Below, in pieces: positions 4,574-37,092 of a DNA stretch of 64,000 nt. The notes under the pieces were generated by a model. That model was not told the origin of the DNA. It saw only the letters and a program-made list of their open reading frames with translations, and did no database searches. The DNA lies in contig JACPES010000003.1 of NCBI GenBank assembly GCA_016183365.1, positions 13,726-77,725 of the forward strand, given 5' to 3'. The translations under genes and the position numbers were made by a program. The stretch's first letter is position 1, and the number at the start of each line of letters is the position of its first letter. The DNA is from Candidatus Collierbacteria bacterium (GTDB lineage Bacteria; Patescibacteriota; Microgenomatia; UBA1400; JACPES01).

Positions 4574-5371
4574 GTGAAATTTTTTCTGTGTCCCCTTAAT
4601 TTCAAAGTGAAACGCTTATTCAACTTTCAGAGATTAAAACAGTTGTTGGGCATTATGCTTATCTTGTTGGCTATTGTTTTTAGTCAGACTGTTTTAGTAG
4701 AAAAATTTGGTTTCAGTAACGTCGTTTACGCTCAAGTGCAATGCTGTACCTCACCGGCTCAAGTAACATTTGTTGGCGGAAATGTTTATTGTTCACTTCA
4801 TACCGGAACCGGCATTCCGACAAATTGCTCTGGATCAACCCCTAACTGTGATGTTGAAACTAACCAGTGTATTCCTATTCCCGACATTACTAATCCGCAA
4901 TGCTGTACCTCACCGGCTCAAGTAACATTTGTTGGCGGAAATGTTTATTGTTCACTTCATACCGGAACCGGCATTCCGACAAATTGCTCTGGGAACTGCG
5001 ACGTTCTAACTAACCGATGCATCAATTCTCTCCCCGGCGGCGGGCCGACGATCACCGTCTACGATCCGACGTGCAATTCTGGAACTGGATATTACGGTTA
5101 TTCCGGTGTTAAAAGTGCCTTGGGGTGTTTGCCGACTGATCCGCAAACGTTTATTAATACCGCCACCCCTTGGGCGGTGGGGATTGGAGCCGGAATTGCT
5201 TTTCTACTGGGGCTTTATGGAGCGCTGATGATTGTTATTTCCGCCGGCGACCCGGAAAAAATGCAGGCTGGCAAAGAAATTATTACCAGCGCGATTGCCG
5301 GACTATTATTAATAGTTTTTGCGGTTTTTATTTTAAGAATAATTGGGGTTGATGTATTAAAATTGTTTTAG
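4574..5371 (+). CDS. Secreted protein: duplicated Cys-rich module fused to a VirB2/TrbC-like pilin domain
   Basis: The signal peptide probably starts at MLILLAIVF. Two copies of QCCTSPAQVTFVGGNVYCSLHTGTGIPTNCSG are encoded by a 95-nt exact DNA repeat (4739-4833 and 4898-4992). The C-terminal pilin-like segment is TATPWAVGIGAGIAFLLGLYGALMIVISAGDPEKMQAGKEIITSAIAGLLLIVFAVFIL. Confidence 0.55.
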   Translation: MKFFLCPLNFKVKRLFNFQRLKQLLGIMLILLAIVFSQTVLVEKFGFSNVVYAQVQCCTSPAQVTFVGGNVYCSLHTGTGIPTNCSGSTPNCDVETNQCIPIPDITNPQCCTSPAQVTFVGGNVYCSLHTGTGIPTNCSGNCDVLTNRCINSLPGGGPTITVYDPTCNSGTGYYGYSGVKSALGCLPTDPQTFINTATPWAVGIGAGIAFLLGLYGALMIVISAGDPEKMQAGKEIITSAIAGLLLIVFAVFILRIIGVDVLKLF

Positions 5372-5388
5372 TCAAGAGTCATTAAATT

Positions 5389-5721
5389 ATGTTTATATCA
5401 CTAAGCGTGCTAGGTGTAGCTTTACCCGGAGGGGAAAGAGACCTTTTTTGGAGCGATCCGCTAGCGGGAAGGGGGAAGTTTGATGACATTGGAACGACTA
5501 TTACTTCTCTTCTCCCCTACCTTTTCATCATCGGCGGAATCGTGACGGGCGGAATGCTGATAATCGGCGGATTCGACATTTTAACTTCCATGGGCAGCGA
5601 AGAAAAACTAAAAAGCGGAGCGGAGAGAATCAAAAACGCCTTAATAGGGTTTTTATTGTTGTTCGCGGTTTATTGGCTGGCCCAAATCGCTCAAGTCCTT
5701 TTTAAAATACCTATTTTATAG
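5389..5721 (+). CDS. VirB2/TrbC-like pilin paralog 2
   Basis: Two hydrophobic helices separated by a GG..SMGSEEKLKSGAERIKNALIG loop, the same pattern as the other seven paralogs. Confidence 0.5.
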   Translation: MFISLSVLGVALPGGERDLFWSDPLAGRGKFDDIGTTITSLLPYLFIIGGIVTGGMLIIGGFDILTSMGSEEKLKSGAERIKNALIGFLLLFAVYWLAQIAQVLFKIPIL

Positions 5722-5761
5722 GGCCAAGGGACAAAGGCTAAGGGCTAAAGGCAGACAAAAA

Positions 5762-6121
5762 ATGCAAACAAAAAACAACCAGAGAACTGATTTACATGAA
5801 AGAATTTTTCGTTGGATAATTTCAGTTCTTAAACTATTAAAGACTGTCAATAAAGATGTCATCAGCATAGTAATAATTCAACAGTTGGCAAAATCATGTA
5901 CTTCTGTCGGAGCAAATGACCAGGAAGCAGTTACTTCTTCTAGCGACAAAGACTTTGTTTCTAAATATCAAATTGTAAAAAAGGAGCTTTCCGAAAGTAT
6001 TTATTGGCTAAGAATACTTAAAGAGATGTATCCTGACATTGACATTTCAAGCCAGTTAAACGAAAGCATTGAACTTCTTAGAATCATTAGTAAAATCATT
6101 CTCAACGTCAAGAATCGTTAA
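5762..6121 (+). CDS. Four-helix-bundle protein (23S rRNA intervening-sequence protein family)
   Basis: Signature SCTSVGANDQEAV.SSS.KDF..K..IVKKELSESIYWLRIL. The gene is flanked by the inverted repeats GGCTAAGGGCTAAAGG (5739-5754) and CCTTAGCCCTTAGCC (6173-6190). Confidence 0.6.
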   Translation: MQTKNNQRTDLHERIFRWIISVLKLLKTVNKDVISIVIIQQLAKSCTSVGANDQEAVTSSSDKDFVSKYQIVKKELSESIYWLRILKEMYPDIDISSQLNESIELLRIISKIILNVKNR

Positions 6122-6123
6122 GT

Positions 6124-6900
6124 TTGGTAAAATCTTTTCTAGAAATGAAAAAATCGTTTTCCCTTAGCCCTCATCCCTTAGCCCTTAGCCCTTTTCTCCC
6201 CCGGCACATCGCCATCATCATGGACGGCAACCGGAGATGGGCTAAAGCCCGCGGCCTGGCCGCCGTTATGGGCCATGACAAGGCGGCCCGCGACGTCATT
6301 GAGCCGATTGTTGATAGGGCGATCCAATTGGGAATAAAGTTTTTAACCTTTTGGGCTTTTTCCACCGAAAACTGGAAACGGGATAAAGCCGAAATCAGAG
6401 CATTAATGGGGATTTTCCGGGAAGGATTAGATAAATTGGGCGGTAAACTCAACGAAAAAGGCGTTCGTTTGAACGTCATTGGTGAAATGGAAAAATTCCC
6501 TGCAGATATCCAAGAAAAAACCAAGAAGTATATGGAGCTAAGCCGTGACAATATCCAAATCTCCGTCAGCTTCGCCCTGAACTATGGAGGAAGAGACGAA
6601 ATCCTGCGAGCCGTAAGACGGCTCTTCGAAAAAATTCGAAATTCGAAATTCGAAATTCGAAATTTAAACGAAGAAATGTTTGCGAAATTTCTTGACACCG
6701 CGGATATGCCGGACCCGGATTTGATCATTAGAACCGGCGGCGATCTGCGGTTATCCGGCTATTTTCCCTGGCAATCGGTATACTCGGAGTTATATTTCAC
6801 CAAAACCCTGTGGCCGGATTTCACCCCGAAGGAACTGGATAAAGCATTGGAAGATTACGAAAAACGAGAACGGCGATTCGGTGGCGGAGGGAGAAAATAA
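6124..6900 (+). CDS. uppS: Undecaprenyl diphosphate synthase
   Basis: Motif HIAIIMDGNRRWAKARGL and the usual UPP synthase core are present. The likely start is the ATG at 6145. The N-terminal extension is encoded by the CCCTTAGCC repeat, and an in-frame GAAATTC x4 repeat encodes KIRNSKFEIRNL. Confidence 0.85.
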   Translation: MVKSFLEMKKSFSLSPHPLALSPFLPRHIAIIMDGNRRWAKARGLAAVMGHDKAARDVIEPIVDRAIQLGIKFLTFWAFSTENWKRDKAEIRALMGIFREGLDKLGGKLNEKGVRLNVIGEMEKFPADIQEKTKKYMELSRDNIQISVSFALNYGGRDEILRAVRRLFEKIRNSKFEIRNLNEEMFAKFLDTADMPDPDLIIRTGGDLRLSGYFPWQSVYSELYFTKTLWPDFTPKELDKALEDYEKRERRFGGGGRK

Positions 6901-6902
6901 AA

Positions 6903-6985
6903 AAAATTGCTAAATTGTTATATTGTTAAATTGGAATACGCACCAATTAGTCCTGCAAAGCAGGATCTGGCTCTGCCAGACAATC
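6903..6985. repeat. About 80-nt hairpin repeat element, copy 1
   Basis: ATTGCTAAATTGTTATATTGTTAAATTGGAATACGCACCAATTAGTCCTGCAAAGCAGGATCTGGCTCTGCCAGACAATCCAGCAAT, containing a TCCTGC...GCAGGA stem-loop, followed by a CAATCTA heptamer array. Confidence 0.5.
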
Positions 6986-7030
6986 CAGCAATCCAACAAT
7001 CTAGCAATCTAGCAATCTGACAATCTAACA
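6981..7030. repeat. CAATCYA heptamer array running into the start codon of pilin gene 3
   Basis: CAATCCAGCAATCCAACAATCTAGCAATCTAGCAATCTGACAATCTAACAATG. Confidence 0.65.
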
Positions 7031-7360
7031 ATGTATTTATTCACAGTCAACATCGGCCAAGATTTAAAACTCCAGGACGATACTCCAATTGGCGACGTCA
7101 TCCAATTCCAAAGCGTCGGAGCCTTGATTTCCGCCTGGCTGCCAAATATTTATATTTTAGGCGGGATTATCGTCTTGATTCTAATCATTGTTTCCGGGTT
7201 TATGTGGATTACCAATGCCGGAAATATTAAAAAAATTGAAGAGTCTCAAAAGATCCTGACCTTTGCTATAATGGGTTTTATATTTTTGTTCGGGAGTTAT
7301 TGGATTATTCAAATAATTCAAGTCCTGACGGGAATACCGATATTGAATTCAAGTTTATGA
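7031..7360 (+). CDS. VirB2/TrbC-like pilin paralog 3
   Basis: Hydrophobic helix (ISAWLPNIYILGGIIVLILIIVSG), then FMWITNAGNIKKIEESQKILTFAIMGFIFLFGSYW. Confidence 0.5.
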   Translation: MYLFTVNIGQDLKLQDDTPIGDVIQFQSVGALISAWLPNIYILGGIIVLILIIVSGFMWITNAGNIKKIEESQKILTFAIMGFIFLFGSYWIIQIIQVLTGIPILNSSL

Positions 7361-7830
7361 AAATACTGAATGAAAAATACCGAATACTGAATAAAAAAAA
7401 GGGCGCATCTGACTTCCCTTATTCAGTATTCAGTATTCAGAATTCAGCATTCGTTTCTCTTGGCATCTTTGGCACCATTAAAAATCCTCTCGGCGATACT
7501 TTTGATAAAGCCGGAGGATACGCATCGGTTGAGGGCGGATTGGGGTTATTACTCACCAATCTCATCCGCTTAACTACCGTCGGCGCCGGCATTTGGTTTT
7601 TGGTCAATTTGATTACTGCCGGGGTGATGTATATCGGCTCCAACGGCGAAACCGAAAAAATCACTATAGCTTGGGCTAAAATTTGGCAATCGTTGATCGG
7701 CCTTTTGATAATCGTTAGTTCTTTGACCCTGGCAGCTATTATCAGTAAAGTATTTTTCGGTAGCTACTCCACCATTCTTAATCCGGTAATCTATGGTCCG
7801 GGCAATGCCGGAGGAGGAAAAATTCCATGA
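7357..7830 (+). CDS. VirB2/TrbC-like pilin paralog 4
   Basis: Starts at the ATG at 7357 (the ORF-track start at 7300 overlaps the previous gene). Core is GAGIWFLVNLITAGVMYIGSNGETEKITIAWAKIWQSLIGLLIIV. A TATTCAG heptamer repeat sits in the N-terminal region. Confidence 0.45.
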   Translation: MKILNEKYRILNKKKGASDFPYSVFSIQNSAFVSLGIFGTIKNPLGDTFDKAGGYASVEGGLGLLLTNLIRLTTVGAGIWFLVNLITAGVMYIGSNGETEKITIAWAKIWQSLIGLLIIVSSLTLAAIISKVFFGSYSTILNPVIYGPGNAGGGKIP

Positions 7831-8219
7831 CATTGACAGACATTAAGGCCGGCAATATTGGCGGTTTGCCTGACGGCTACCAGGCTATGCCGGCCTCCGA
7901 CGCTCCGGCCACTTTGGAAAAAATAATTTCCAACACAGTCGGATTTTTTACCGTGGTTGGAGGCTTGACATTTATCATTTATATCGTTTTAGCCGGCTTA
8001 ACCTGGATTACTGCCCGGGAAGAAGATGCCAGACTATCAAAAGCCAAACAAATGCTCACCAACGCCCTGATCGGGCTGGCCCTGATAGTTGTTTCTTGGG
8101 CCGTGGCCGGAATAATCGGGACTATTTTTGGATTTGACATTTTAAACCCGGGAAAATATATTGAAATGATATCGCCTGGCGGGAGCGGCGGCGATGAACG
8201 AGAAAAAAGATCATCATGA
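7827..8219 (+). CDS. VirB2/TrbC-like pilin paralog 5
   Basis: FFTVVGGLTFIIYIVLAGLTWITAREEDARLSKAKQMLTNALIGLALIVVSWAVAGII. It overlaps its neighbours by 4 nt, consistent with an operon. Confidence 0.5.
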   Translation: MTLTDIKAGNIGGLPDGYQAMPASDAPATLEKIISNTVGFFTVVGGLTFIIYIVLAGLTWITAREEDARLSKAKQMLTNALIGLALIVVSWAVAGIIGTIFGFDILNPGKYIEMISPGGSGGDEREKRSS

Positions 8220-8617
8220 AACGAATCTTTTATTTATCTATTTGCCTATTTGTCTATTTGTCTATTCTGTCTGCCTCTGCCTATGCCGCCGGCATCACCA
8301 ATCCGGCTCTTGCGGACGATCTGGGGAGGGGGGATCCGGCGAATGTTTTTGGCCGGTTCGTGGGAAGCTGGTGGGGATTGGCGTATGTCATCGGCGGATT
8401 GCTGTTTTTGCTTTACCTGGTGTGGGGCGGAGTGGAATGGATCATGGGCGGTGGCAATAAAGACCGGATCGAAAGCGCCAAAAATAAAATTTCCAACGGT
8501 ATTTTAGGGCTGACCCTGCTGGCTGCGTCGTTCGCGTTGGTAAAGGCAATTGGATTTGTGTTGGGAATTGATTTATTGGAAACTTTGACTTTTGATTTAT
8601 CCAGACTGGCGCCGTAA
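8216..8617 (+). CDS. VirB2/TrbC-like pilin paralog 6
   Basis: Signal peptide MKRIFYLSICLFVYLSILSASAYA. Core is WWGLAYVIGGLLFLLYLVWGGVEWIMGGGNKDRIESAKNKISNGILGLTLLAASFALV. The signal peptide is partly encoded by a TCTATTTG repeat. Confidence 0.5.
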   Translation: MKRIFYLSICLFVYLSILSASAYAAGITNPALADDLGRGDPANVFGRFVGSWWGLAYVIGGLLFLLYLVWGGVEWIMGGGNKDRIESAKNKISNGILGLTLLAASFALVKAIGFVLGIDLLETLTFDLSRLAP

Positions 8618-8669
8618 TCAATGTTTTGGTAAACTAACTGGAATGTGTTTGAAAAGGAGGTGAGAAATT

Positions 8670-9026
8670 ATGTCATTATTATCAACAGTGTTTGCGGCAG
8701 GAAGCGGAGATATTAATATCGGCCCCAAAGCAACGGCGGCCGGAGTGGACAAAGTAGGCACTATCGGTGATTTAATTGGCGCGGCCATTGGCTCGGCATT
8801 CTTAATCGCCTTCCTGCTGGTATTCGTAATGCTGGTTTTTGGCGGCGTCCAATGGATTACTTCCGGCGGAGACAAAGAAAATACCCAAAAAGCCAAAGAC
8901 CGGATAACTTCCGCTTTGGTGGGAATAGCGATCATCGGCGGAGCTTGGGCTTTAATGAGAGTTGTAGAATTTTTCTTCAACATCGATATCTTGGGTGGAT
9001 TCAAATTGCCGTCGGCGGCGCAATAA
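8670..9026 (+). CDS. VirB2/TrbC-like pilin paralog 7
   Basis: Preceded by an AAGGAGGTGAG ribosome-binding site. Core is GAAIGSAFLIAFLLVFVMLVFGGVQWITSGGDKENTQKAKDRITSALVGIAIIGGAWALM. Confidence 0.5.
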   Translation: MSLLSTVFAAGSGDINIGPKATAAGVDKVGTIGDLIGAAIGSAFLIAFLLVFVMLVFGGVQWITSGGDKENTQKAKDRITSALVGIAIIGGAWALMRVVEFFFNIDILGGFKLPSAAQ

Positions 9027-9043
9027 ACGCGATCCGAATAAGA

Positions 9044-9178
9044 TGATGTCTTGAAGGTGGAAGATGGAAGTCCTTGATCTTGAAACCTTGACGAATCACC
9101 ATCGAGGATTCAAGGTAGCAATCACATCAAGTTCAAAAACCTCAAGAGCATCCATCTTCAAAACATCTATTTCGTGGA
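9044..9178 (+). repeat. About 140-nt palindromic intergenic element, copy A (between pilin genes 7 and 8)
   Basis: Starts GATGTCTTGAAG...CTTGATCTTGAA.CCTTGAC and ends ...ATCAAGTTCAA.AA...CAAGAGCATCCATCTTCAAAACATC. The two ends are inverted repeats of each other. Confidence 0.6.
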
Positions 9179-9211
9179 TTAGTATCGCTTTTCTCTGCTA
9201 TACTTTCAGAT

Positions 9212-9547
9212 ATGAGAGTGTGGGCAGTCGGATTAGTCACCAATGATGCTCCGAATTCTTTGGCCGATATTGAAACGGTAATTAAGAATTTATTGGGATC
9301 GGCTGCCAGCCTGATTGGGTTGGCTATTTTTGTGATGCTGGTGGTCGGAGCCTTTCAATACATTACTTCCGGAGCGGACCAAAAAGCTGTGGAAAAATCC
9401 CGACAAGTATTCACTTTTGCCTTGATGGGCGGAGCCGCGATCATAATTTTATGGCTGGTATTTGTTTTCCTGAAAGAATTCACCGGCATTGACTTACTGA
9501 AGTTTAATATTTGTATATTTCAAGATGAATTCTGCAAATTGCCGTGA
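9212..9547 (+). CDS. VirB2/TrbC-like pilin paralog 8
   Basis: ASLIGLAIFVMLVVGAFQYITSGADQKAVEKSRQVFTFALMGGAAIIILWLVFVF. Confidence 0.45.
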   Translation: MRVWAVGLVTNDAPNSLADIETVIKNLLGSAASLIGLAIFVMLVVGAFQYITSGADQKAVEKSRQVFTFALMGGAAIIILWLVFVFLKEFTGIDLLKFNICIFQDEFCKLP

Positions 9548-12408
9548 AAAAATTTACTATTTTGCCAATATTCATGCTTCTGCTCTTGAGTATAAGTTTA
9601 CAACCCACTCCGGCCGACGCTTTGGAAACCTGCGTTCCCCAGCAGATAAATCCCAACGAACCCCATGAATTCCGACCCAATCCCGGGCAAATCTGCACTC
9701 CCGAGATTCCGCAAGCAGCCCGCTTAACCTGCGGCACTGATCTGGTAGCCCAAAAAACCGTCAACGCGGCTCGGGGCGGGACTGGCTGCTCGCCGGCAAA
9801 TCCGACCGTCGGACAAACAGTTACCTGCACTAGGGATCTTAGTGTTGATGTGCCGATTTCCATCGGGCTGGCGGGATTGGAATTACCAATCGCCGGCGTG
9901 GCCAGCAACACCCAAGTCAGCGATACTTTAAACCCCGCCCAAAAAATGAGCCAGTACACCAGTTGGTATCTTCAAGGAGTCAAAGAGGATGGCACCAATG
10001 CCAAAGCCCTGGCCGACTACATGAACGGCATCATCAATAGCACCGGTGGCATCGGTAACCTGAAGCTCCTGTCGCCGGTTTTTAATATCCCCAGCTTCCA
10101 AACGCCCGGTCTGTTTGCCGCCATAGAAGCAGCCGGGGCAAAATTCAGTGAGCTGGATGCTTTCGCCGGCAACACCTACACCTTGGAAGGCCGCAAAGCT
10201 TATGACTGGTACGCCGATTTCCTGAAGGGAAAGGCGGATCAGTACGGCAAAAAAGTGATCTTCACCGAATTCGGTGATTTCGCCACCATCAACACCCAGC
10301 CAGACAACCGCCCGGATGTGGTCGCGACAATGAAGCAAGAGTTTGACCGGACGATGAGTGATGGCAATATTGAATCGGCGTTATATTTCAACGCGCTGGG
10401 AGATAATCCCGGCTTCGGTGGTTTTCGCCTGTCGCCGGATGAGCTGCGGGCGATTACTCAAGGCGCGCCTCGCCGAGCCGGGATTAACTCGGCCTCGCCG
10501 GTAAATGGCGGCGGCGGTTTTGCCACGCGCGTCGCCGACCTTGGTCTGGGTTGGACGCTGGAAATTGCCTACAACCCCAGCGATAAAGACGCTGTCGTCA
10601 GCGCGTTTAACACCGCAATTGCCCGCGGCCTGACACCGATCCTGCGAATCTGCGCCGGCGATGCCTGCGAATTCAGCGATCCGGCCGTCTATGCCCAATT
10701 CCTGCGCGACATTGCTCCCCGGATCAATGGCACCTTTTGGGCGATTGCCGGGCCGAACGAACCGGATATCGAAACTTGGGTAAGTGGAACTTCGAGCGTT
10801 CAGACCGACCAGTTCAGCTTCTTGGGTCCGATCAAAAAACTGGTTTCCGATACCGTCATCGACCAGAAAAAAACCGATCTGATCAATGCCGCAGTCGCCG
10901 GAACCGCGTATAACCAAATTATCGGCTACGTGTACCACAACGCCGTCATTCCTCGGCTGGAAGCAAAGAATTTGCTGCAGCAAAACCCCCGCCAGACTGA
11001 TATCCAGCGGATCCGCCTCACCGATATGGCCAATCATCTTAATCCGGCCTACATCGAAGGGGATCAAGAAGCCCTAAAGTGGTATATCCTCTGGCGCGAC
11101 ATGCCGTTTAGTCAAACCGTGGATCTGCCGGGTGAAATTTTCGCCACCACGTCGCTAGCCGATGCCAACGTCAAAAACGCCAGATTAACAATCACCTCGA
11201 CACTGGCGGACTTCCGGGTGGCCTTCCCCCATTTGGTGGAAGACGACCAAATGAGCCAATTGCTGCAAGCGGTGTTTCGGCCGCTGGGAGTGGCTGAAAC
11301 CAGCGGTTTTTCCGAACCGAATGCGGTGGATTATTCCACCGTCAATCGAGCCACACCGTTTAATACCAACTATTGCGATCTGCGGGAAACTTATAGCAAT
11401 CGCGGCGACAGCCTGGAAACCACCCGAACGATTACCGGCAACTTTAGCTTCACCAAAACCGTTACATATTCTTATACTCATGGAGAAAAAGACGCCAACG
11501 GCAAGCTCCTGACCACGATTGATGTAGATGTGTCGGGGCCGGTGTCGGTTTTCGCCCGCAATCCGCTGTCCATCGACAATATCTACGATCGATTAGTTGG
11601 CGGCCCATCAGCAATTTTTAAAGCCATTTTCCCCAACCCCGATCAAACCCTCGGTGGGATCAAGGACCTGCCGGCGGCAGCGCCGATCTCCATGAATTGC
11701 GGCTCCGGCTGCACGGTGAAACCCGGTAATCAAGAAGGGCGTAAAGCCGAGGTTTTCTTCGCCCACTGGGGCAGCGTGCTGACTTACTTCCACGACAAGC
11801 TCCAAAAAGCCCTTGACCCGCTGGGACGCACTAGCGCAGGTCCGAATCCGCCAGGCGGCGGAGGCTTATCTTGCACTATGCCGATTACTTCCTGCGGCCC
11901 GGTCAATTGGAACCTCGGTCTCTTTGACACTTATTTCAACGCTTACAATTCGGATAACAATAGCTCCTGGAGTCTGATCAAAGAACCATGGGCGCAGCAG
12001 CTGATCGGCCAAACCGCCGGCTGGAGCTGTCCGCAGTTTGTCAGTACCTTGTGGCTTGAGGAATCCGGTGGATCGGCAATCGGGCAGTATGATTTGGGTT
12101 GCATTTATCACCTCGATGGACACAGGGCACTAACCAGTGATCATCGCGGCGGGCCGGCTGATTTTCCCACCTACACCGCCTTTAAAAATCACTATGAACC
12201 CATCCTCAAAGATCAGCTCGCTTGTCTGCGCTCGTATATCGAACCGATCGGTGAAGATTTTCAAACCTTCATGTGTCAGTACAGCGGAGAGACCGATGCC
12301 GATCCGACTAAGCCATTCCGCCAATGCGATACCTTTACTAACAATCCCAATTTCCCCGTCAACATGTGTAAAATCGGCGGCGAAGTGGGAATTGCCACCC
12401 CAAACTAG
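9544..12408 (+). CDS. Large secreted protein (954 aa) with glycoside-hydrolase-like motifs and a Cys-rich C-terminal domain
   Basis: Signal peptide MKKFTILPIFMLLLLSISLQPTPADA. Motifs VIFTEFGDF and WAIAGPNEPD resemble TIM-barrel hydrolase catalytic motifs. Gly/Ala-rich codon use raises local GC. Confidence 0.45.
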   Translation: MKKFTILPIFMLLLLSISLQPTPADALETCVPQQINPNEPHEFRPNPGQICTPEIPQAARLTCGTDLVAQKTVNAARGGTGCSPANPTVGQTVTCTRDLSVDVPISIGLAGLELPIAGVASNTQVSDTLNPAQKMSQYTSWYLQGVKEDGTNAKALADYMNGIINSTGGIGNLKLLSPVFNIPSFQTPGLFAAIEAAGAKFSELDAFAGNTYTLEGRKAYDWYADFLKGKADQYGKKVIFTEFGDFATINTQPDNRPDVVATMKQEFDRTMSDGNIESALYFNALGDNPGFGGFRLSPDELRAITQGAPRRAGINSASPVNGGGGFATRVADLGLGWTLEIAYNPSDKDAVVSAFNTAIARGLTPILRICAGDACEFSDPAVYAQFLRDIAPRINGTFWAIAGPNEPDIETWVSGTSSVQTDQFSFLGPIKKLVSDTVIDQKKTDLINAAVAGTAYNQIIGYVYHNAVIPRLEAKNLLQQNPRQTDIQRIRLTDMANHLNPAYIEGDQEALKWYILWRDMPFSQTVDLPGEIFATTSLADANVKNARLTITSTLADFRVAFPHLVEDDQMSQLLQAVFRPLGVAETSGFSEPNAVDYSTVNRATPFNTNYCDLRETYSNRGDSLETTRTITGNFSFTKTVTYSYTHGEKDANGKLLTTIDVDVSGPVSVFARNPLSIDNIYDRLVGGPSAIFKAIFPNPDQTLGGIKDLPAAAPISMNCGSGCTVKPGNQEGRKAEVFFAHWGSVLTYFHDKLQKALDPLGRTSAGPNPPGGGGLSCTMPITSCGPVNWNLGLFDTYFNAYNSDNNSSWSLIKEPWAQQLIGQTAGWSCPQFVSTLWLEESGGSAIGQYDLGCIYHLDGHRALTSDHRGGPADFPTYTAFKNHYEPILKDQLACLRSYIEPIGEDFQTFMCQYSGETDADPTKPFRQCDTFTNNPNFPVNMCKIGGEVGIATPN

Positions 12409-12411
12409 TAA

Positions 12412-19245: not shown

Positions 19246-19247
19246 AC

Positions 19248-31100: not shown

Positions 31101-31768
31101 TTTCTCGGGTGTCCGGCGCCAACAACGTCATCGCCACCACTAACACCGAATACGACGCCACCGGCGGCGAGGGGATAAACGCCTGCACTTGGCTGGAAAA
31201 ACACGGTGAAGCGTCGGTGGCTGTCAACGCCAATTTCTTCGAAGCCCAAAGCACCAAGAAAATTCCTCGCGGTCCGGCGTCATACCGGCTGGATCCGATT
31301 CCCCATTCGCTGGATCCCCGCTACAGTTTTTGGAGCATTTATGCCAGTGGCTCGAACTTCACGCTTGGACCGGCAGACATTGCTACCCGGCCGCATCAGT
31401 TTGCCGTCTCCGGTTCGCCATTACTAATTCGCGGCAACACAGCGATGCCAATCCCCGATACCTCTGATGGTCCGCAGCATTTTGTCTGGCACACCAAAGA
31501 TACCCGACTAGCGATGGGCTTCACTGGCGCGTCAGCCGTGATCGTCGTTCTGGATAATGCTACGGTCAAGGACATGCAAAAATTCCTACTGTCACAGAAT
31601 ATCCAGAACGCCATCAATCTCGACGGCGGCTCGTCGGCGACGCTGTGCGAGCGAACCGGCTCGGGCGTCATATCCATCATCAGCACCGGCCGAAAGTCGG
31701 CCAACAGCATTGGCTTTATCGGCGGGACGATCGAAAAAATTACCGGCGGACTGGCTCCGGGACCCTAG
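28166..31768 (+). CDS. 1200-aa cell-wall hydrolase: cytoplasmic N-domain, glycine-zipper TM cluster, M23 peptidase and phosphodiester-glycosidase domains
   Basis: M23 motifs HDGVATAF...GTSGNSTGPHLHYE. C-terminal NAGPA-like NLDGGSSATL. The central Gly-rich region has multiple predicted TM helices (GAGLAGMFFLGQMILAKILGFLGAAAW...). It sits at the start of the second T4SS block, in the position a PrgK/VirB1 analogue would occupy. Confidence 0.65.
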   Translation: MVTTTRDQIAVAAIQDILRREDYQPELLKDMAKALAKARNVLPPPDAIIVRNKVYSLKTIEERLVQFIHYLPPDNRPEITDTSFYDENFLNQLISIIDEVSGFAPSPKAKVSMDAVVPANLQELLEAQAKATAEKKQALGRPSQLTQQIKQAQEIGIRSQLLRVAVSRRLYLTLLESSYIKDLQVIYGKETVNQFLTQRIDLAVNQSITALAMNQLGLSDPANAAAYFTSQLEKNLKTDRNLAVALAKTPKISRKNALVDAKNLAGDAVAEIQPAAEAFRAEQDSSPIYRATAQEIAQGEIEAALAKSGQQLSKKQASRLADTLAKYSDHSDKQLLILKRILPGISPETGQEMIGRLQPAISALARSSDHPSIAETINEASLINLARTNPALFPFRLMAAIRGNRLSDGETVALTVRLSQQLRVSLDYVALRLSGINAKDLQGHLVSLTKGLPVLGLLPTRPPINPNSPIFRRLNDALPGVSQIDRAKEEFQFNPIASGLNLRSNWYSITHFFNVGKAIRYNLGRLPSINRMASSAQTVFSGLRIRSGIANSAFSFFTSVSGGIGKLRSAAAYPFRAVGSVISAGWSKAKSWAGIQVKAGLAKAGAWLAKKGVTAAATKLGLIAVGKGAAALLAQAVPIAGQIFAAALIGGDILKFLWNNRKEIGAGLAGMFFLGQMILAKILGFLGAAAWTLGGGILGGVIGFAIGGPIGAVVGTLVGGTIGYLISSGALGSALAGVAGWLGSIAVGIGSFIATITSPAALAGVAGTVATVSVVGAIGGGAFLAIQNQHAQTAALYVQTAAPDSFGRGRGADIPACWPTSGTIAQGPYNDRPIVCQSGGKVVTCSHAAYNSNAVDIAKSPVGEPVYASHDGVATAFAFSPVAEFGNYVIVQSSPKGFLTIYAHLLEFDLPTGVPTQITGGTRIGLMGTSGNSTGPHLHYELNNDGHIDTIVPQYNLYDTVAYDPVCIGQSSSSISGWISRVSGANNVIATTNTEYDATGGEGINACTWLEKHGEASVAVNANFFEAQSTKKIPRGPASYRLDPIPHSLDPRYSFWSIYASGSNFTLGPADIATRPHQFAVSGSPLLIRGNTAMPIPDTSDGPQHFVWHTKDTRLAMGFTGASAVIVVLDNATVKDMQKFLLSQNIQNAINLDGGSSATLCERTGSGVISIISTGRKSANSIGFIGGTIEKITGGLAPGP

Positions 31769-31786
31769 TTTTGGAAATTCGTTACA

Positions 31787-32785
31787 ATGACAGCAGTGAA
31801 AAACAAATTAAACCAACTATTACGACTGCTGCAGACCCACTGGCTGCTTACTGTCCTGGGCCTGGTTATCATCTTAATACCCATAATTATTTTGATCCGC
31901 GGGCAAAGACCGCCCCGGGTGACTGTGCCGCCGCCAGAAATTACCGGTCAGGTTCCGAATAAAGCCGTCCGCAGCATCACCTACACTGGCCAACAGTTAA
32001 TCCTGCCAAAGACAATGGTTGTTTACCGTAACACTGCCAGTGAACTATCGCTGATGAACCTAGTCAAACGGATCGCTACCAGCCGAAATTTACCTCCCTC
32101 CCCCAACAGTTCCACCCTGTGGGTGTCTGGCGAAACCGGCGAGTATGTCCATTTGGATCAAGCCCACGGCGTGGTCACTTACGGCCAAAATTTACCACCG
32201 GAAGATGCGCCCGCTCCCCAGACAGACCGCGCTCGCCAGCTGGCCCAGCAGTGGGTAAAAGACACGCTATCGCTGACGGTCCGCCCGGATGAGAAAAATA
32301 TCAAGTATTTTGCCGTTTCCGGCTCACAACTGGTGCCGGTCGATCCCGGCAGCGCAGAGGTGATCGAGATCCCGTTGAATTTAACGATTGGCCAATACCC
32401 GGTGATGATTGGCAATGCGGCTATTCCAGTTGCCACCGTCAGCGTCGGCCGCAATCACACAATCAATCGAGCCATCCTCAAACCATTTGCCCTGACTCCG
32501 ATGTCCGCTAGCGAACTACCAACAATTGATTTATCCACCATCGTCAAAAACCTGACGGATAAAGCCGAGATTATTAGCATTATGCCGGAAGCGCCAATTG
32601 ATACCAACGCTCATCCGCCCACGGAAATTACCCTAACCGAAGTCCAAATCCAATATCGTCTCGATCCCAATACCAATCTCATCTACCCTTATGTCGCTTT
32701 TACCGGCACCGCCAAACTCCAGGGTGAATCTGTCACGGCCGACGTAAACGTGATTTCTCCCGTCGTTAACACCGCTGCCCCCTAA
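31787..32785 (+). CDS. Bitopic membrane protein, possible VirB8/TcpC/PrgL analogue
   Basis: N-terminal TM helix (LLTVLGLVIILIPIIILI) followed by a ~300-aa extracytoplasmic domain. The size and position match a VirB8-like component, but no motif confirms it. Confidence 0.3.
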   Translation: MTAVKNKLNQLLRLLQTHWLLTVLGLVIILIPIIILIRGQRPPRVTVPPPEITGQVPNKAVRSITYTGQQLILPKTMVVYRNTASELSLMNLVKRIATSRNLPPSPNSSTLWVSGETGEYVHLDQAHGVVTYGQNLPPEDAPAPQTDRARQLAQQWVKDTLSLTVRPDEKNIKYFAVSGSQLVPVDPGSAEVIEIPLNLTIGQYPVMIGNAAIPVATVSVGRNHTINRAILKPFALTPMSASELPTIDLSTIVKNLTDKAEIISIMPEAPIDTNAHPPTEITLTEVQIQYRLDPNTNLIYPYVAFTGTAKLQGESVTADVNVISPVVNTAAP

Positions 32786-32844
32786 CAACCGCGCGACCGA
32801 CAACATGATCCTCAAACAATTCCTCGAACTGGCAGACGGAATTT

Positions 32845-34035
32845 TTGGGAAGTTTCGCAAGCTTCCGTCTCTCCTTGTTACCCCTCTTCCACCAGTATAA
32901 AATTAACCCTATGATTGAACACCCTATTCCTCAAAATGTCACCAGCTACCAGTTCCGCCTCATCGGCGATATGACTTTAAAACAATTCATCGAATTGGCC
33001 GGAGGAGTAGTGGCCGGCTGGCTGATTTGGAGCCTTGATCTGCCAGCAATTATCCGGTGGCCCATGGTAATCATGGCGGTAATTTTGGGGTTTGGATTGG
33101 CGTTTATGCCCCTGGAAGATCGGCCGCTGGATCAATGGTTTATCGCCTTTTTCCGGGCCATTTACCGGCCAACCATTTTTGTCTGGAAAAAAGCTGTCCG
33201 CGATGATATTTTAAGCTTTCAGGCTAGCCCGGCAGAATCAAAATCCGTTTTAGAATCTGCGGTTAAAATGCCCACGGCCAAGCTTGAGTCTTTGTTGGCC
33301 GGCTATAAGATAAATGAGGCAGTAGAAGCCGATCCATTACTGGATGCTTGGGAAAAACGCTTGGCAGCCGTTCCGCAATTATTTTCCGAAGTCACGGTGC
33401 CTAAAAAACTAGCCGACGTAACCGTCTTTCCTCAAGTCAGGGCGGTAGATTTAAGCTATCACGTTTCGGATTTAACCCCAGTCCTCCATCCATTAACTCC
33501 ACCAGAGGATCCGGATGCCATTCTGCGGGGGGAAATTACTTTACCGGCCCACCGTCTCCGAGTCCCGCAGAATTTACCGATAGCCATTGGCGATGCCCCG
33601 GCTAAACCTGCACTTCTCGTCAAACGCGGAGATTCTTTAAGTCAAATAGGGACATCTGAAATCAAACTCCCGTCTTTTAATACGGCCGTTGTCAAGTCCA
33701 GAACCGGAGCCGTTTCGGCAACAGTAATGCAATCCTTAATCTTGCCATCCAGCCCATCTATTCCTAATGTCCTGACCGGAATTGTGGTAACTTCAGACGG
33801 ACAAATCGCTGACAATGCCATTGTTGAAATCCGGCGCCTGACCGATCATCTACCGGTTAGAGCCGTTAAATCCAATAAACTCGGACATTTTGCCATTGCC
33901 ACTCCTTTAGAAAATGGAAGTTATGAAATCCTGACGGACAAAGACGGTCTGGCCTTTGGTATACTCAAAATTGACGTCGGGGGCTTGATTATGCCGCCGA
34001 TTGAAATTAGAGCAAAAAAAGAAAAGATGTCTTGA
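32845..34035 (+). CDS. PrgI/VirB3-like membrane protein with a C-terminal beta-sandwich extension
   Basis: N-terminus YQFRLIGDMTLKQFIELAGGVVAGWLIW...PMVIMAVILGFGLAFMPLEDRPLDQWFIAFFRAIYRP matches the PrgI-family layout. It lies upstream of VirB4, as prgI does before prgJ. Confidence 0.5.
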   Translation: MGSFASFRLSLLPLFHQYKINPMIEHPIPQNVTSYQFRLIGDMTLKQFIELAGGVVAGWLIWSLDLPAIIRWPMVIMAVILGFGLAFMPLEDRPLDQWFIAFFRAIYRPTIFVWKKAVRDDILSFQASPAESKSVLESAVKMPTAKLESLLAGYKINEAVEADPLLDAWEKRLAAVPQLFSEVTVPKKLADVTVFPQVRAVDLSYHVSDLTPVLHPLTPPEDPDAILRGEITLPAHRLRVPQNLPIAIGDAPAKPALLVKRGDSLSQIGTSEIKLPSFNTAVVKSRTGAVSATVMQSLILPSSPSIPNVLTGIVVTSDGQIADNAIVEIRRLTDHLPVRAVKSNKLGHFAIATPLENGSYEILTDKDGLAFGILKIDVGGLIMPPIEIRAKKEKMS

Positions 34036-34168
34036 AGATAGAAAATAGATATTCTTGATCTTGAATTCTTGACAGCTTGACTATCTGATCAAGGAATCAA
34101 AAAATCAATCCGCCAGCCGGCGGATCAAGTTCAAGAATTTCAAGAATATCCATCTTCAAAATATCTTA
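34026..34168 (+). repeat. About 140-nt palindromic intergenic element, copy B (between the prgI-like gene and ORF 34178)
   Basis: Shares the GATGTCTTGAAG start, the CTTGATCTTGAA(TT)CTTGAC block and the ATCAAGTTCAAGAA...TATCCATCTTCAAAATATC end with copy A. Its centre is CCGCCAGCCGGCGG. Confidence 0.6.
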
Positions 34169-34177
34169 AATTAACAA

Positions 34178-34870
34178 TTGCCTATGCCTGTCCAACCTAT
34201 AATTTCTACCACCCAGGATCATTTACCCGTCCACGACATCCAGGAAAATCTGGTAGTTTTAAAAAACGGCTCGGCGGCCATGGTAATCGAAACCTCGGCG
34301 GTTAATTTCGGCTTGTTATCTCAAGGAGAACAAGACGCGATTATTTACGCTTACGCCGCTCTATTAAATTCTCTCAATTTCCCGATTCAAATTTTAATCC
34401 GCTCCGAAAGAAAAGATATCAGCGCCTATCTAGGATTATTGGCCGCGGCGGCAAAAAAACAAATGTCTCCCACTAAACGGGCTTGGATTGAATCTTACCG
34501 CCATTTTGTGGCCGAAACCGTCCAGCGCCGCAACGTCTTAGACAAAAAATTTTATATTATTTTACCCTTTTTGTCATTAGAACTGGGCTCTGCCAAATCT
34601 TTGGGGCTAGCCGTAACCAGCCAAAATCGGCTGCCGGCGCCGTTGACAGAAATTGTCAAAAAGGCTTTGGTGGCCCTGGGGCCGAAGCGCGACCACGTTA
34701 TCAGGCAATTGGAAAGAATCGGTTTAACCGCCAGGCAATTAATCAATAAAGAACTTTTGTCTCTTTTATACCGCACTTATAACCCCGGATACGCCGCCCC
34801 GGAAATCGATGCCGTCAACTTAACCGCTCCCCTGGTGGAGCCGATTATCAAAGATAACAAAATATTATGA
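34178..34870 (+). CDS. Hypothetical protein resembling a VirB4 N-terminal domain
   Basis: TTQDHLPVHDIQENLVVLKNGSAAMVIETSAVNFGLLSQGEQDAIIYAYAALLNSLNFPIQILI parallels the N-terminus of the adjacent VirB4 (TTIQDILAPDAIEVDFTHLKIGNRLVRTLFVAGYP). It overlaps the virB4 start by 4 nt. Confidence 0.35.
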   Translation: MPMPVQPIISTTQDHLPVHDIQENLVVLKNGSAAMVIETSAVNFGLLSQGEQDAIIYAYAALLNSLNFPIQILIRSERKDISAYLGLLAAAAKKQMSPTKRAWIESYRHFVAETVQRRNVLDKKFYIILPFLSLELGSAKSLGLAVTSQNRLPAPLTEIVKKALVALGPKRDHVIRQLERIGLTARQLINKELLSLLYRTYNPGYAAPEIDAVNLTAPLVEPIIKDNKIL

Positions 34871-37092
34871 AGATTCCTTTAATCACCAATATTTTTAAGA
34901 CTAAAAAACCGGAGAATCCAAAAAATCAAGATATTTCGCCGGCAATGCAGTTTGCCCAGGGAATTACCACTATTCAGGATATCTTGGCCCCGGATGCAAT
35001 TGAGGTTGACTTTACCCACCTTAAAATCGGCAACCGGCTGGTCCGAACCCTATTTGTGGCCGGTTATCCGCGTTTTGTGGCCGCCAACTGGCTGTCTCCT
35101 TTGATAAACTTTGACCACTCTTTGGACGTTTCCATGTTTGTTTATCCGGTTGAAGGCAAGGGCGTTTTGGAAAATCTGCGGCGGAAAATCACCGAAATGG
35201 AAGCCGAGATTAATTCCGACCTGCAGCGCGGCCGGCTGGCCAATATTGATACTCAAGTCAAGCTGGAAGACGCCAAAGGGCTGCAGGAACAGTTGGCCAA
35301 GGGGTCTGAACGTTTTTATCAATTTAGCCTGTACGTGACCATCGGATCAGACACCGAAGAAGAACTGAATCAGATCTCCAAACAAATTCAATCCACATTA
35401 GGGTCTCTTTTGATCATTGCCAAACCGGCGTCTTTCGTCATGGAACAAGCCTTTAAAACCACTCAACCGCTGGGTCAGGATTTTTTAAATATTACCCGGA
35501 ATATGGATACCACTTCTCTGGCAACCACTTTTCCGTTTACTTCCAGCGAACTCTCGGCCAATGAGGGAATTTTATACGGAATCAACGAGCATAATGATAG
35601 TTTGGTGGTATTTGACCGCTTTTCCAGAGAGAACGCGAATATGGTCGTATTTGCAAAATCGGGCGCGGGAAAGTCGTTTTTCGTCAAACTTGAAGCCCTG
35701 CGGTCGTTAATGTTTGACACCGAAGTTATCGTCATCGATCCGGAGGACGAATATCACCGGATGGCCGACGCCGTCAACGGCCAATATATTGATTTTAGTT
35801 TTTCATCCAAGGTTAAAATAAATCCTTTTGACCTTCCCTCTTACGCCCGCGGAGAATCCGGACAGGCAGGAGAAAACGAACTATCGCAAAAATTGCTTTC
35901 GCTTCACGCCCTAATGAAAATAATGCTTGGGAGCATGGACGCCACCCAAGAGGCCATCTTAGATCGAGCCTTAATCGCCGCCTATAAAGCCAAAGGCATC
36001 AGCCCCAATCCGGAATCGTTTAATAACGAACCCCCTCTTTTGGAGGATTTATATAAATCTTTGATTGGAATGGAGGCCCCGGGAGCCGAGAACTTGGCCG
36101 CCAGATTGGAAAAATTTGTCAAAGGCAGTTTCCGCGGACTGGTGGACCAAAAAACCAATGTCAACTTGACCAGCGACTTTATCGTCTTTGGAATCAAGAA
36201 TCTGGAAGACGCGCTCCGGCCGGTGGCCATGTTTATGATTCTGGATTTTATTTGGACCAAAGTAAAATCCCAACTTAAGCGCCGGCTATTAATAGTAGAC
36301 GAGGCTTGGTATTTGATGAAAAACCAGGATTCAGCCCTGTTTTTATACTCTATGGCCAAACGAGCCCGTAAATATTATTTGGGGTTGACTACCATTACTC
36401 AAGACGTCGAGGACTTCTTGCATTCTGACTACGGTAAGGCTATCGTCACCAATTCCAGCATTCAAGTCCTGATGAAGCAGTCGGCGGCGGCGGTTGACTC
36501 TCTCCAAGAAGCCTTTTATCTATCCGCCGGGGAGAAACAACTCTTAATGGCTTCAGAAATTGGCGAAGGGTTGTTTTTTGCCGGCCAAAACCATGTGGCC
36601 ATTAAGGTTGTCGCCAGCCCGGAAGAACACAAATTAATCACCAGCAAGCCGCAGGAAATATTAGAAATGGCAAAGCAACGGGGACAACCCGAGGAGAGCG
36701 CCAACCCCGTAATTGCGACACCACAACGTCCCGATTTGATCGGGGGGAGTGGCGAGCATACTACTGGGGTTCCGGAGAGCAATTACTGGAAACCTCCAAA
36801 ACCGGCCGGACAGGAGTCTTTGGCTCTAAATGAAATCGAAGTGGACGTAATTAAAGATCAGAATACTCTAAAAACTCAGATTGCCGGAGAATCGGAAAAT
36901 AAGAGAGTCGGGCTATCGGATAATCGAATTTCCAGGAAGCCGGCAACTCCCGAGCCTCCGAATCTCCGGCAATCTGGCCATCCGAGTGTTCCGAGTATTC
37001 AGAAAACTCCGCTAGCCCCAAATGCCGCCGTCCAACCATCCATCGAATTTACTTCGATATTTGAAACTCAGCCGAAAAAAACAACAGAATAG
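34867..37092 (+). CDS. virB4: VirB4/TrbE/PrgJ-family T4SS ATPase
   Basis: Walker A VFAKSGAGKSFFV, Walker B RRLLIVDEAWYLM, and the TTITQDVEDF motif. The N-terminal domain pattern is typical of Gram-positive VirB4. It has a C-terminal Pro-rich tail. Confidence 0.8.
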   Translation: MKIPLITNIFKTKKPENPKNQDISPAMQFAQGITTIQDILAPDAIEVDFTHLKIGNRLVRTLFVAGYPRFVAANWLSPLINFDHSLDVSMFVYPVEGKGVLENLRRKITEMEAEINSDLQRGRLANIDTQVKLEDAKGLQEQLAKGSERFYQFSLYVTIGSDTEEELNQISKQIQSTLGSLLIIAKPASFVMEQAFKTTQPLGQDFLNITRNMDTTSLATTFPFTSSELSANEGILYGINEHNDSLVVFDRFSRENANMVVFAKSGAGKSFFVKLEALRSLMFDTEVIVIDPEDEYHRMADAVNGQYIDFSFSSKVKINPFDLPSYARGESGQAGENELSQKLLSLHALMKIMLGSMDATQEAILDRALIAAYKAKGISPNPESFNNEPPLLEDLYKSLIGMEAPGAENLAARLEKFVKGSFRGLVDQKTNVNLTSDFIVFGIKNLEDALRPVAMFMILDFIWTKVKSQLKRRLLIVDEAWYLMKNQDSALFLYSMAKRARKYYLGLTTITQDVEDFLHSDYGKAIVTNSSIQVLMKQSAAAVDSLQEAFYLSAGEKQLLMASEIGEGLFFAGQNHVAIKVVASPEEHKLITSKPQEILEMAKQRGQPEESANPVIATPQRPDLIGGSGEHTTGVPESNYWKPPKPAGQESLALNEIEVDVIKDQNTLKTQIAGESENKRVGLSDNRISRKPATPEPPNLRQSGHPSVPSIQKTPLAPNAAVQPSIEFTSIFETQPKKTTE

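Follow-up and report, generated by a model that had tools for sequence, protein, structure and literature searches.

A type IV secretion locus of the Patescibacteria clade beside the probable replication origin of Candidatus Collierbacteria

Introduction

The type IV secretion systems (T4SSs) of Patescibacteria, the candidate phyla radiation (CPR), have been surveyed across 3,035 genomes (Quinonero-Coronel et al., 2025; PMC12102498). VirB4 was found in 2,417 of these genomes, nearly all in a single clade nested in the monoderm MPF_FATA type. TrsD is the most abundant accessory protein, homologs of PrgI/VirB3 are present, and VirB2-like pilins form arrays of 2–11 genes, especially in Microgenomatia and Saccharimonadia. 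The systems frequently lie close to dnaA/dnaN, relaxases occur in only 103 genomes, and homologs of the type IV coupling protein (T4CP) are usually far from virB4. Homologs of VirB6 are scarce in Microgenomatia, where extreme divergence has been suspected (Quinonero-Coronel et al., 2025). Here we describe a T4SS locus in a 64,000-nucleotide stretch of a genome of Candidatus Collierbacteria (contig JACPES010000003.1, positions 13,726 to 77,725), referred to below as the window; Collierbacteria are placed in the class Microgenomatia in the scheme of the same survey.

Transposon sequencing of Southlakia epibionticum demonstrated that the cluster SEML1_0006-0019 and the pilins are essential for epibiotic growth, and neither a coupling protein nor a relaxase could be recognised in this cluster (Wang et al., 2023; PMC10633639). 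The Patescibacteria T4SS has been reviewed as the first essential T4SS (PMC12857230) and is the only one known to be essential for its bearer. The pilin arrays, TrsD, the proximity to dnaA, the missing relaxase and the proposed non-conjugative role have thus all been published for Patescibacteria (Quinonero-Coronel et al., 2025; Wang et al., 2023). The supplement of the survey has no entry for the present genome. The locus in the window is a real, complete-looking and clean Microgenomatia example of this described system, and not a new kind of system.

The T4SS genes and their place beside oriC

We read the region as a chromosomal T4SS of the Patescibacteria clade that would serve contact-dependent exchange with a host cell and not plasmid conjugation, and give this reading a probability of about 0.85. 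The components can be read directly from the sequence, and from them we infer the function of the machine. The T4SS genes form two blocks on the plus strand, at 4574–13992 and 28166–37092 (Table 1). A sequence-only reading of the same DNA had described a monoderm-style T4SS-like locus beside oriC, with eight pilins, a 954-residue secreted protein and a VirB6-like polytopic protein in the first block, and an M23+NAGPA hydrolase, a PrgI/VirB3-like protein, an open reading frame (ORF) resembling the VirB4 N-terminus and a VirB4 ATPase in the second. All genes it listed are present where it had placed them, and the family matches given below, the DnaA boxes and the GC skew agree with its overall description. 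Two details need amendment. Overlaps of 4 nt, which it had assumed throughout, occur as ATGA at five junctions (7357, 7827, 8216, 9544 and 34867) and not at every junction; the first block holds the pilins, the 954-residue and the VirB6-like proteins as described, but is interrupted by two non-T4SS genes. Two ORFs of the window are identical or nearly so to the NCBI proteins MBI2309549.1 (HYU89_01500) and MBI2309529.1 (HYU89_01400), which are encoded on a 588-kb contig.

The cumulative GC-skew minimum of the window lies at about 38–40 kb and coincides with a cluster of DnaA boxes between dnaN and dnaA; because of these two signs we place oriC there, directly to the right of the T4SS locus. About 1.4 kb separate the stop codon of virB4 from the DnaA-box cluster. 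To the right of oriC there are only housekeeping genes (yidC, jag, RNase H, L25, TsaC/E/D, ValRS and GroES/EL).

The VirB4 ATPase matched the NCBIfam model conju_CD1110 with 379 bits against a cut-off of 325, with model positions 181–734 aligned. The ORF preceding it matched NCBIfam TrsD over positions 14–200 of 201 (E 6.8e-8, below the cut-off) as well as the N-terminal part of VirB4 models (VirB4_plasma positions 103–233); its orthologs carry the Pfam domain TraC-like (PF26593) and are 90–95% identical in close relatives. In effect, VirB4 is split into TrsD and a core, joined by an ATGA overlap. The N-terminal PrgI domain of the next protein upstream scored 33.2 bits against a Pfam cut-off of 27; its ORF spans 32845–34035, with the likely start at 32911. 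This protein is 72–85% identical to its closest relatives. Some relatives add a CarboxypepD_reg domain.

At least 8000 relatives of VirB4 were scored. The best 120 of them are 60–83% identical to the query (76–83% for the closest relatives), and those with a source name belong to Patescibacteria lineages. Plasmid copies reach at most 37.5% identity; among those listed, the best-ranked belong to Bacillota and Actinomycetota and carry the annotation CD1110-family VirB4. From these identities, VirB4 would belong to a CPR-specific clade. No relatives were found on the viral contigs searched.

For the comparison between species, a profile of the VirB6-like protein was run against one genome per species (GTDB), which gave 80 loci (individual loci are given L numbers); the distances between the blocks given below refer to the 50 loci with at least 9.5 kb of downstream flank. 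The PrgI-TrsD-VirB4 trio occurs in L001–L005, L008 and 35 further loci. It lies by dnaN/dnaA in Collierbacteria, a Beckwithbacteria genome and a third lineage, where virB4 is found on the other side of the origin genes. In three close Collierbacteria relatives VirB4 carries a LAGLIDADG intein at the P-loop, at about query residues 258–270 (L001 10001–13819, L003 10001–13894); the VirB4 of the window is free of inteins.

Since VirB4 belongs to the conjugative CD1110 family, one may ask whether the cluster is instead the mating-pair-formation module of a conjugative or integrative element, or its decayed remnant, with coupling protein and relaxase located elsewhere. The nearest non-CPR relatives of VirB4 do reside on monoderm plasmids, and some related CPR loci have a T4CP-like ATPase within the cluster, but the cluster occupies the same place by dnaN/dnaA in several CPR lineages, and the window contains no integrase, relaxase, T4CP, tRNA target or flanking repeats. 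The identity of VirB4, 60–83% to the listed CPR proteins against less than 38% to any plasmid copy, fits vertical inheritance, and the rarity of relaxases (103 of 3,035 Patescibacteria genomes; Quinonero-Coronel et al., 2025) speaks in the same direction. We consider a conjugation module highly improbable.

Table 1. Features of the T4SS locus and of the adjoining origin region, in window coordinates (aa, amino acids; TM, transmembrane).
Feature	Position	Strand	Remarks
Pilin paralog 1	4574..5371	+	VirB2-like C-terminal pilin domain after two Cys-rich module copies; T4SS_pilin 42.1 bits
Pilin paralog 2	5389..5721	+	T4SS_pilin 37.8 bits; weak Mbov_0395 pilin-like match, E 2.4e-6
23S rRNA intervening-sequence protein (IVP), four-helix	5762-6121		Non-T4SS gene inside pilin array
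uppS	6124-6900		Non-T4SS gene inside pilin array
Pilin paralog 3	7031..7360	+	No Pfam match; 37% identity to 5389 (E 3.5e-12); two TM helices
Pilin paralog 4	7357..7830	+	No Pfam match; 32% identity to 7827 (E 6.5e-8)
Pilin paralog 5	7827..8219	+	T4SS_pilin 32.1 bits; weak TrbC/VirB2 match
Pilin paralog 6	8216..8617	+	T4SS_pilin 31.7 bits
Pilin paralog 7	8670..9026	+	T4SS_pilin 37.9 bits
Pilin paralog 8	9212..9547	+	T4SS_pilin 23.4 bits, below cut-off; paralogy
Secreted mosaic protein, 954 aa	9544..12408	+	Signal-like N-terminal helix; slot between pilin array and virB6
VirB6-like polytopic membrane protein, 526 aa	12412..13992	+	About 8 hydrophobic/TM segments
Convergent protein, 790 aa	14048..16420	-	Converges on virB6; no signal peptide, at most one weak hydrophobic segment
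Companion of the 790-aa ORF, 349 aa	16425..17474	-	N-terminal motif shared with 18130-19245
Polytopic cell-wall hydrolase (VirB1 analogue), 1200 aa	28166..31768	+	About 620-aa cytoplasmic N-terminal part, five TM, M23, NAGPA
Bitopic protein, 332 aa	31787..32785	+	One N-terminal TM helix; slot of VirB8-like proteins
PrgI/VirB3-like protein	32911..34035	+	About 280-aa extracytoplasmic C-terminal extension
TrsD-like protein, detached VirB4 N-terminal domain	34178..34870	+	NCBIfam TrsD; Pfam TraC-like in orthologs
VirB4 ATPase, CD1110 (MPF_FATA) type, 741 aa	34867..37092	+	NCBIfam conju_CD1110; Pfam P-loop_TraG
dnaN	37189-38271	-	3' end (stop codon) at 37189
DnaA-box cluster, probable oriC element	38428-38502		Between dnaN and dnaA; four boxes, one perfect TTATCCACA at 38470
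dnaA	38504-39931	-	

Comparison with other T4SSs

Like other T4SSs of the Patescibacteria clade, the window system combines a CPR-clade VirB4 with adjacent TrsD and PrgI/VirB3, divergent pilins (eight here, with 24–38% pairwise identity by BLAST, against a mean of 25% in the survey), a chromosomal position beside dnaA/dnaN and a peptidase-type wall hydrolase, with no relaxase or T4CP in the cluster. It differs from them in being stretched to about 32 kb, in the presence of uppS and an IVP gene in the pilin array, and in a middle part where toxin-antitoxin (TA) and unknown genes take up about 10 kb. Whereas the survey found VirB6 to be scarce in Microgenomatia, the window encodes a member of a divergent family with a predicted VirB6 fold.

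The monoderm MPF_FATA systems (CTn2/CD1110, Trs of pGO1, Prg/Pcf of pCF10 and Mbov_0395-0397 of the Mycoplasma integrative and conjugative element, ICE) share with the window a VirB4 passing the CD1110 cut-off, TrsD, PrgI, a polytopic protein in the VirB6/PrgH position and a large membrane-anchored wall hydrolase. Unlike these, the window has an eight-fold pilin array and no coupling protein, relaxase or surface adhesin, the system sits at a fixed chromosomal place by oriC and not on a mobile element, and the hydrolase is composed of M23 and NAGPA in contrast to SLT and CHAP. From the VirB/Trw systems of R388 and Agrobacterium it differs further, as the window lacks the outer-membrane core VirB7/9/10, VirB5, VirB11 and VirD4, and its VirB4 is distant (104 bits in TIGR00929, which has a cut-off of 643).

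The closest non-CPR relative found is a colinear cluster on a megaplasmid of Pontibacillus sp. ALD_SL1 (L090, NZ_CP062975.1, 351801–361354), which encodes a pilin-like protein, a polytopic protein of 779 residues, a small PrgI-like protein, a TrsD-like protein, VirB4 and an M23 peptidase. It is located next to flagellar genes on an 898-kb replicon classified as 'non-mobilizable', and may be another non-conjugative monoderm T4SS. Because of this colinear cluster, the plasmid VirB4 proteins of the CD1110 family and the weak matches of the pilins to the Mycoplasma ICE, the label 'Gram-positive-style' given by the sequence-only reading is right.

Coupling protein, relaxase and the proposed role

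Pfam scans of about 30 ORFs at 1–37 kb found no coupling-protein or relaxase domain, the ORF translations at 40–64 kb, read by eye, included no T4CP or relaxase, and tblastn with a CPR T4CP-like protein gave no match in the 64-kb window. Both the absence of these genes from the window and a non-conjugative role in host interaction had been put forward from the sequence; the former is borne out by these searches, and the latter matches the published proposal (Quinonero-Coronel et al., 2025; Wang et al., 2023).

By analogy with the homologous cluster of Southlakia, and with T4SSs of monoderms in general, we propose that VirB4/TrsD would most likely power the assembly of a membrane channel, consisting of PrgI, the VirB6-like protein and possibly the bitopic protein, and also of a VirB2-type pilus-like filament. 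The M23/NAGPA hydrolase would open the cell wall locally for both channel and filament. Rather than conjugating plasmids, the resulting machine would export proteins to the host cell or take up material from it on contact; conjugation and DNA uptake appear less likely.

DNA uptake or release by a machine like ComB of Helicobacter or Ced of Sulfolobales, feeding a nucleotide-auxotrophic cell, is the other role to be weighed. To our knowledge, CPR bacteria do not have nucleotide synthesis, which would suit the role, and DNA uptake was among the proposals of the sequence-only reading. VirB4 matches the archaeal DNA-import ATPases CedB (47 bits) and CedD weakly, but with scores far below those of the conjugative VirB4 models, and the locus contains no DNA-processing genes. 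Moreover, the deletion of comEC in Southlakia abolished transformation while viability was kept, and the T4SS is still essential there (PMC12857230, summarising PMC10633639). Altogether, we regard a DNA-uptake machine as very unlikely.

Several points weigh against contact-dependent host exchange. A T4CP-like ATPase of about 730 residues (TrwB_AAD_bind, TraG-D_C, DUF87) is encoded inside the VirB6–PrgI gap in 4 of the 80 related loci, on the minus strand (L045 16924–19119, L061 16225–18411, L069 15732–18059 and L075 16445–18631), and at 20404–21887 in L006, about 8.5 kb from virB4; therefore, some CPR lineages keep a coupling-protein-like gene in the cluster. As VirD4-type homologs occur in 2,918 of the 3,035 Patescibacteria genomes, mostly far from virB4 (Quinonero-Coronel et al., 2025), a coupling protein may exist elsewhere in this genome. 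Essentiality was demonstrated in Saccharimonadia, which are a different class (Wang et al., 2023). The putative VirB8-like role of the bitopic protein found no sequence or structure match in the searches run. Finally, the sequence reveals neither the cargo nor the direction of transport, and the function assigned here is a deduction.

The pilin array and the secreted mosaic protein

The eight small VirB2-like proteins have two hydrophobic helices each. Six of them matched Pfam T4SS_pilin (PF18895), five above the curated cut-off of 26.6 bits (4574, 5389, 7827, 8216 and 8670). The two proteins with no Pfam match (7031 and 7300/7357) are clear paralogs of the others by BLAST (Table 1), so the count of eight is right. 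The ORF of the fourth pilin opens at 7300, and the likely start is the ATG at 7357, which overlaps the previous stop codon as ATGA. The pilin-like model of the Mycoplasma ICE was weakly matched by six of the seven window pilins scanned. To their closest relatives, the pilins are 63–90% identical.

The two interrupting genes, uppS and the IVP gene, are found within the pilin array here (5762–6900) and in the closest relatives (L007 2666–3844, L008 1400–2880, L009 262–3376), and in 14 of the 80 loci no more than 10 kb separate uppS from virB6. The pilin arrays of other lineages are flanked by genes for polyprenyl synthase or the mevalonate pathway (HMG-CoA reductase, thiolase) and for an extracytoplasmic function (ECF) sigma factor. 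Upstream of the array, the minus strand encodes a membrane-anchored coiled-coil protein of 597 residues with a SpoIID domain (2168–3961; peptidoglycan lytic transglycosylase family). This protein occurs in the same position in 18 of the 80 related loci and may be a further wall-remodelling partner of the T4SS.

The 954-residue protein encoded between the pilins and virB6 begins with a signal-like helix, in keeping with its earlier description as secreted. It had no match in Pfam but has 470 representative homologs, and its relatives carry SLT_3/SLT, GDSL lipase, GH5, NAGPA and 3D domains. Across species, 48 of 51 proteins in this slot fall into one BLAST-connected mosaic family; identity to the closest relatives is 35–38% over partial alignments, which places the protein in the fast-evolving group. 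An AlphaFold2 (AF2) model with a mean predicted local distance difference test score (pLDDT) of 82 contains a TIM barrel and three further domains, predicted as an N-terminal beta domain, the TIM barrel at residues 150–415, an alpha/beta domain with a long hairpin at 430–757 and a helical C-terminal domain at 790–940. The fold search returned TIM-barrel matches, including those of the glycoside hydrolase (GH) families GH53/17/10/5. A role in cell-envelope degradation is plausible, and TEFG, NEP and EES motifs in the sequence may be catalytic motifs of the GH-A or SLT type.

Residues 585–668 (11296–11547) weakly matched parasporin-2 (PDB 2ztb, E 0.035), an aerolysin-type pore-forming toxin. The stretch is Ser/Thr-rich and alternating, and the AF2 model has a long beta-hairpin at 629–674. 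A relation to parasporin-2 was not confirmed; the fold matches fell mostly to the TIM-barrel domain.

The VirB6-like protein

Sequence profiles are nearly silent on the 526-residue polytopic protein. It had no Pfam match of its own, the family profile found nothing among the PDB sequences, and with the TrbL/VirB6/PrgH profiles a single one of 40 family members gave a weak TrbL match (E 0.003). The family itself is large: a word search gave 287 matches, and GTDB genomes contain at least 558 loci. The identity of the window protein to its closest relatives is 62–65%. The AF2 model, built from a 40-sequence alignment, has a pLDDT of 75.7 overall and above 90 across the membrane core. In Foldseek, the five best PDB matches of this model were all TrwI/VirB6 of R388, and DotA was also among the best fold matches of the family. 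By hhalign, the most conserved motif, APLQLM.NALPGS..W.RN, links the family to the polytopic protein of the Pontibacillus cluster (probability 79.5%).

With its predicted membrane segments and VirB6-type fold matches, the protein thus appears to be VirB6-like as the sequence-only reading had it, supported at the level of the fold with modest scores. In 35 of the 50 loci, its gene has the pilin genes on one side and the VirB4 block on the other. A fold-supported VirB6 candidate for Microgenomatia, largely missed there by profile searches, would be an addition to the published picture.

The cell-wall hydrolase and the bitopic protein

The 1200-residue hydrolase contains Peptidase_M23 (E 1.5e-16) and NAGPA (E 5.4e-12) domains in Pfam, with matches in NCBIfam as well. 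Its orthologs keep the N-terminal and TM part (48–60% identity) and vary in the C-terminal enzymatic domains.

For the bitopic protein downstream, a word search in 5.8 billion proteins found only two homologs. Positional orthologs of 316–378 residues exist in at least 14 loci with 16–24% identity. The protein had no Pfam match, a profile built from 17 positional orthologs had no match in the PDB, and hhalign against a protein of the Bacillota cluster gave none either. Calling it VirB8-like would be a guess from its position.

A convergent, fast-evolving ORF next to virB6

In all 41 loci with both ends of the gap visible, the gap between the blocks opens with a minus-strand ORF of 538–1490 residues that converges on virB6. 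The 790-residue ORF of the window fills this conserved first slot and is therefore a member of the locus. In close pairs, the convergent ORFs are orthologs in colinear order, and they diverge at two to three times the rate of VirB6: at VirB6 identities of 80, 64 and 59%, they are 56, 31 and 23% identical, respectively. The window protein is 26% identical to its L007 ortholog over 100 residues. Across species, the convergent ORFs form tiny BLAST/HMM clusters, and iterative clustering with hidden Markov models (HMMs) did not unite distant species. The proteins in this slot have no signal peptides and mostly no TM helices, a few having a C-terminal hydrophobic tail. No match for the 790-residue ORF was found in Pfam, NCBIfam, PHROGs, PADLOC or the PDB, and no relatives on the JGI metagenome contigs.

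The adjacent 349-residue companion is 23% identical over 318 residues to a 331-residue gene product in the same position in L007, and is probably part of the locus, too. It is also paralogous to the product of the gene at 18130 (33% identity over 85 residues). The bitopic protein and the proteins of 790, 349 and 371 residues had no counterpart at E 1e-5 in the closest relatives and form, with the secreted mosaic protein and the hydrolase, the fast group of the locus. The pilins, VirB6, PrgI, TrsD and VirB4 make up the conserved group.

The fast-evolving convergent ORF and the mosaic hydrolase-like protein are natural candidates for the cargo of the machine or for breaching the host envelope. 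We infer for the 790-residue ORF the part of a candidate substrate or specificity factor. That the convergent ORF is a T4SS cargo or host-specificity factor engaged in an arms race, with the product of its neighbour at 16425–17474 as adaptor or chaperone, is a tentative idea that we would call rather unlikely; if true, it would make a substrate of the essential CPR T4SS directly testable. In the portions available to us of the published descriptions of the Patescibacteria T4SS (Quinonero-Coronel et al., 2025; Wang et al., 2023), we found no mention of the convergent ORF or of the secreted mosaic protein, and as regular members of the locus both are additions to the published picture.

The interval between the two blocks

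In 35 of the 50 loci, prgI, trsD and virB4 follow virB6 on the same strand within 10 kb, with a VirB6–PrgI gap of 1.8–9.9 kb (median 7.1 kb). Three of the remaining loci show only the hydrolase slot at the edge, and 12 have nothing within 10 kb. After the convergent ORF, the gap holds an optional plus-strand gene of 800–1575 residues in the hydrolase slot and then one of about 200–380 residues in the bitopic slot. The common order in Microgenomatia is pilin array, secreted protein, virB6, convergent ORF, hydrolase, bitopic protein, prgI, trsD, virB4, dnaN and dnaA. The window locus is a lineage-specific stretched version of this layout, with a VirB6–PrgI gap of 18.8 kb, of which about 10 kb, past the convergent ORF and before the hydrolase gene, consist of TA modules and unknown genes.

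The sequence-only reading had explained the split by an insertion into a once contiguous operon and had proposed related genomes as the check. The blocks do lie close together in most of them, and the segment is rich in TA modules (HicAB-like, NYN, AbiEi) and bears local rearrangement scars, namely an orphan AbiEi gene and a truncated copy of a gene for 324 residues. The two blocks are, on the other hand, never truly contiguous, as a minus-strand ORF always intervenes and the first gene of the segment itself fills the slot that is conserved in all 41 relatives examined. The wide split recurs in the closest relatives, at the left edge (L007 and L010) and at the right edge (L001–L004). L007 and L010, whose VirB6 is 62–65% identical, likewise have uppS and IVP inside the pilin array and share inter-block genes, namely NYN, a 191-residue gene, HicB, a 207-residue membrane protein and a 100-residue gene; L010 and L001 are different contigs of one genome, which would fit a split of this width there. 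In four close Collierbacteria relatives, the right block consists of the hydrolase, one or more variable small genes with or without a TA pair, prgI, trsD, virB4, dnaN and dnaA, and an AbiEi-containing TA region precedes the hydrolase as in the window. The segment at 14–28 kb has no integrase, tRNA, phage-family match, terminal repeats or long flanking repeats, and is mostly at the usual 42–47% GC of the window; only the Pro/Ala-rich genes at 24–26 kb are higher. A single mobile-element insertion splitting a contiguous operon is thus improbable, and synteny corrects this idea: because the closest relatives share the split and marks of mobile elements are absent, the segment points to gradual lineage-specific accretion, and the wide split looks like a state that built up gradually and is shared within a Collierbacteria subclade.

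Besides the TA modules, the inter-block genes had no family match in Pfam, NCBIfam, PHROGs, PADLOC or the PDB. At 27174–28100 on the minus strand, the orphan AbiEi antitoxin (PADLOC, E 1.6e-33) stands beside an 86-residue fragment of the 324-residue gene that is intact in relatives, which keep the AbiEii toxin in a different gene order. The site, immediately before the hydrolase gene, is a scar of rearrangement or deletion. A second IVP four-helix gene (23048–23458) lies between inverted arrays of AAAAGGTT-type repeats (22975–23566) and resembles a small cassette. A 63-nt direct repeat with 89% identity (19238–19300 and 20716–20778) covers the 5' ends of two unrelated minus-strand genes, and an element of 25–50 nt recurs in three intergenic regions (17467–17492, 20048–20099 and 21559–21611) near HicB-type and unknown genes. 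Both may be shared promoter or leader modules.

Strand, composition and repeats

The plus-strand T4SS genes (4574–37092) all lie to the left of oriC (~38.4–40.3 kb) and point towards it; they are therefore lagging-strand genes, transcribed against the direction of replication. Co-directional with replication are dnaN, dnaA and the genes on the minus strand between the blocks. The convergent arrangement of virB4 and dnaN is also found in relatives. Promoter and terminator scans gave matches at chance level only.

The GC content rises to 55–57% at 10001–12000 and 30001–32000, which correspond to the 954-residue gene and to the 3' half of the hydrolase gene with the bitopic gene, compared with about 42–45% elsewhere. 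Amino-acid composition or foreign origin could account for these stretches. About 30 short tandem arrays, with units of 7–9 nt in 4–6 copies each, are scattered across the window in intergenic regions and inside ORFs (for example, 6161–6193, 6632–6664, 6980–7032, 7420–7452, 8231–8272, 22975–23056, 40200–40237, 47722–47758, 49269–49303 and 52226–52257). They also occur within housekeeping genes (uppS, ValRS and TsaD) and are not specific to the T4SS locus. The arrays inside ORFs total about 32–33 nt, and the reading frame is therefore kept.

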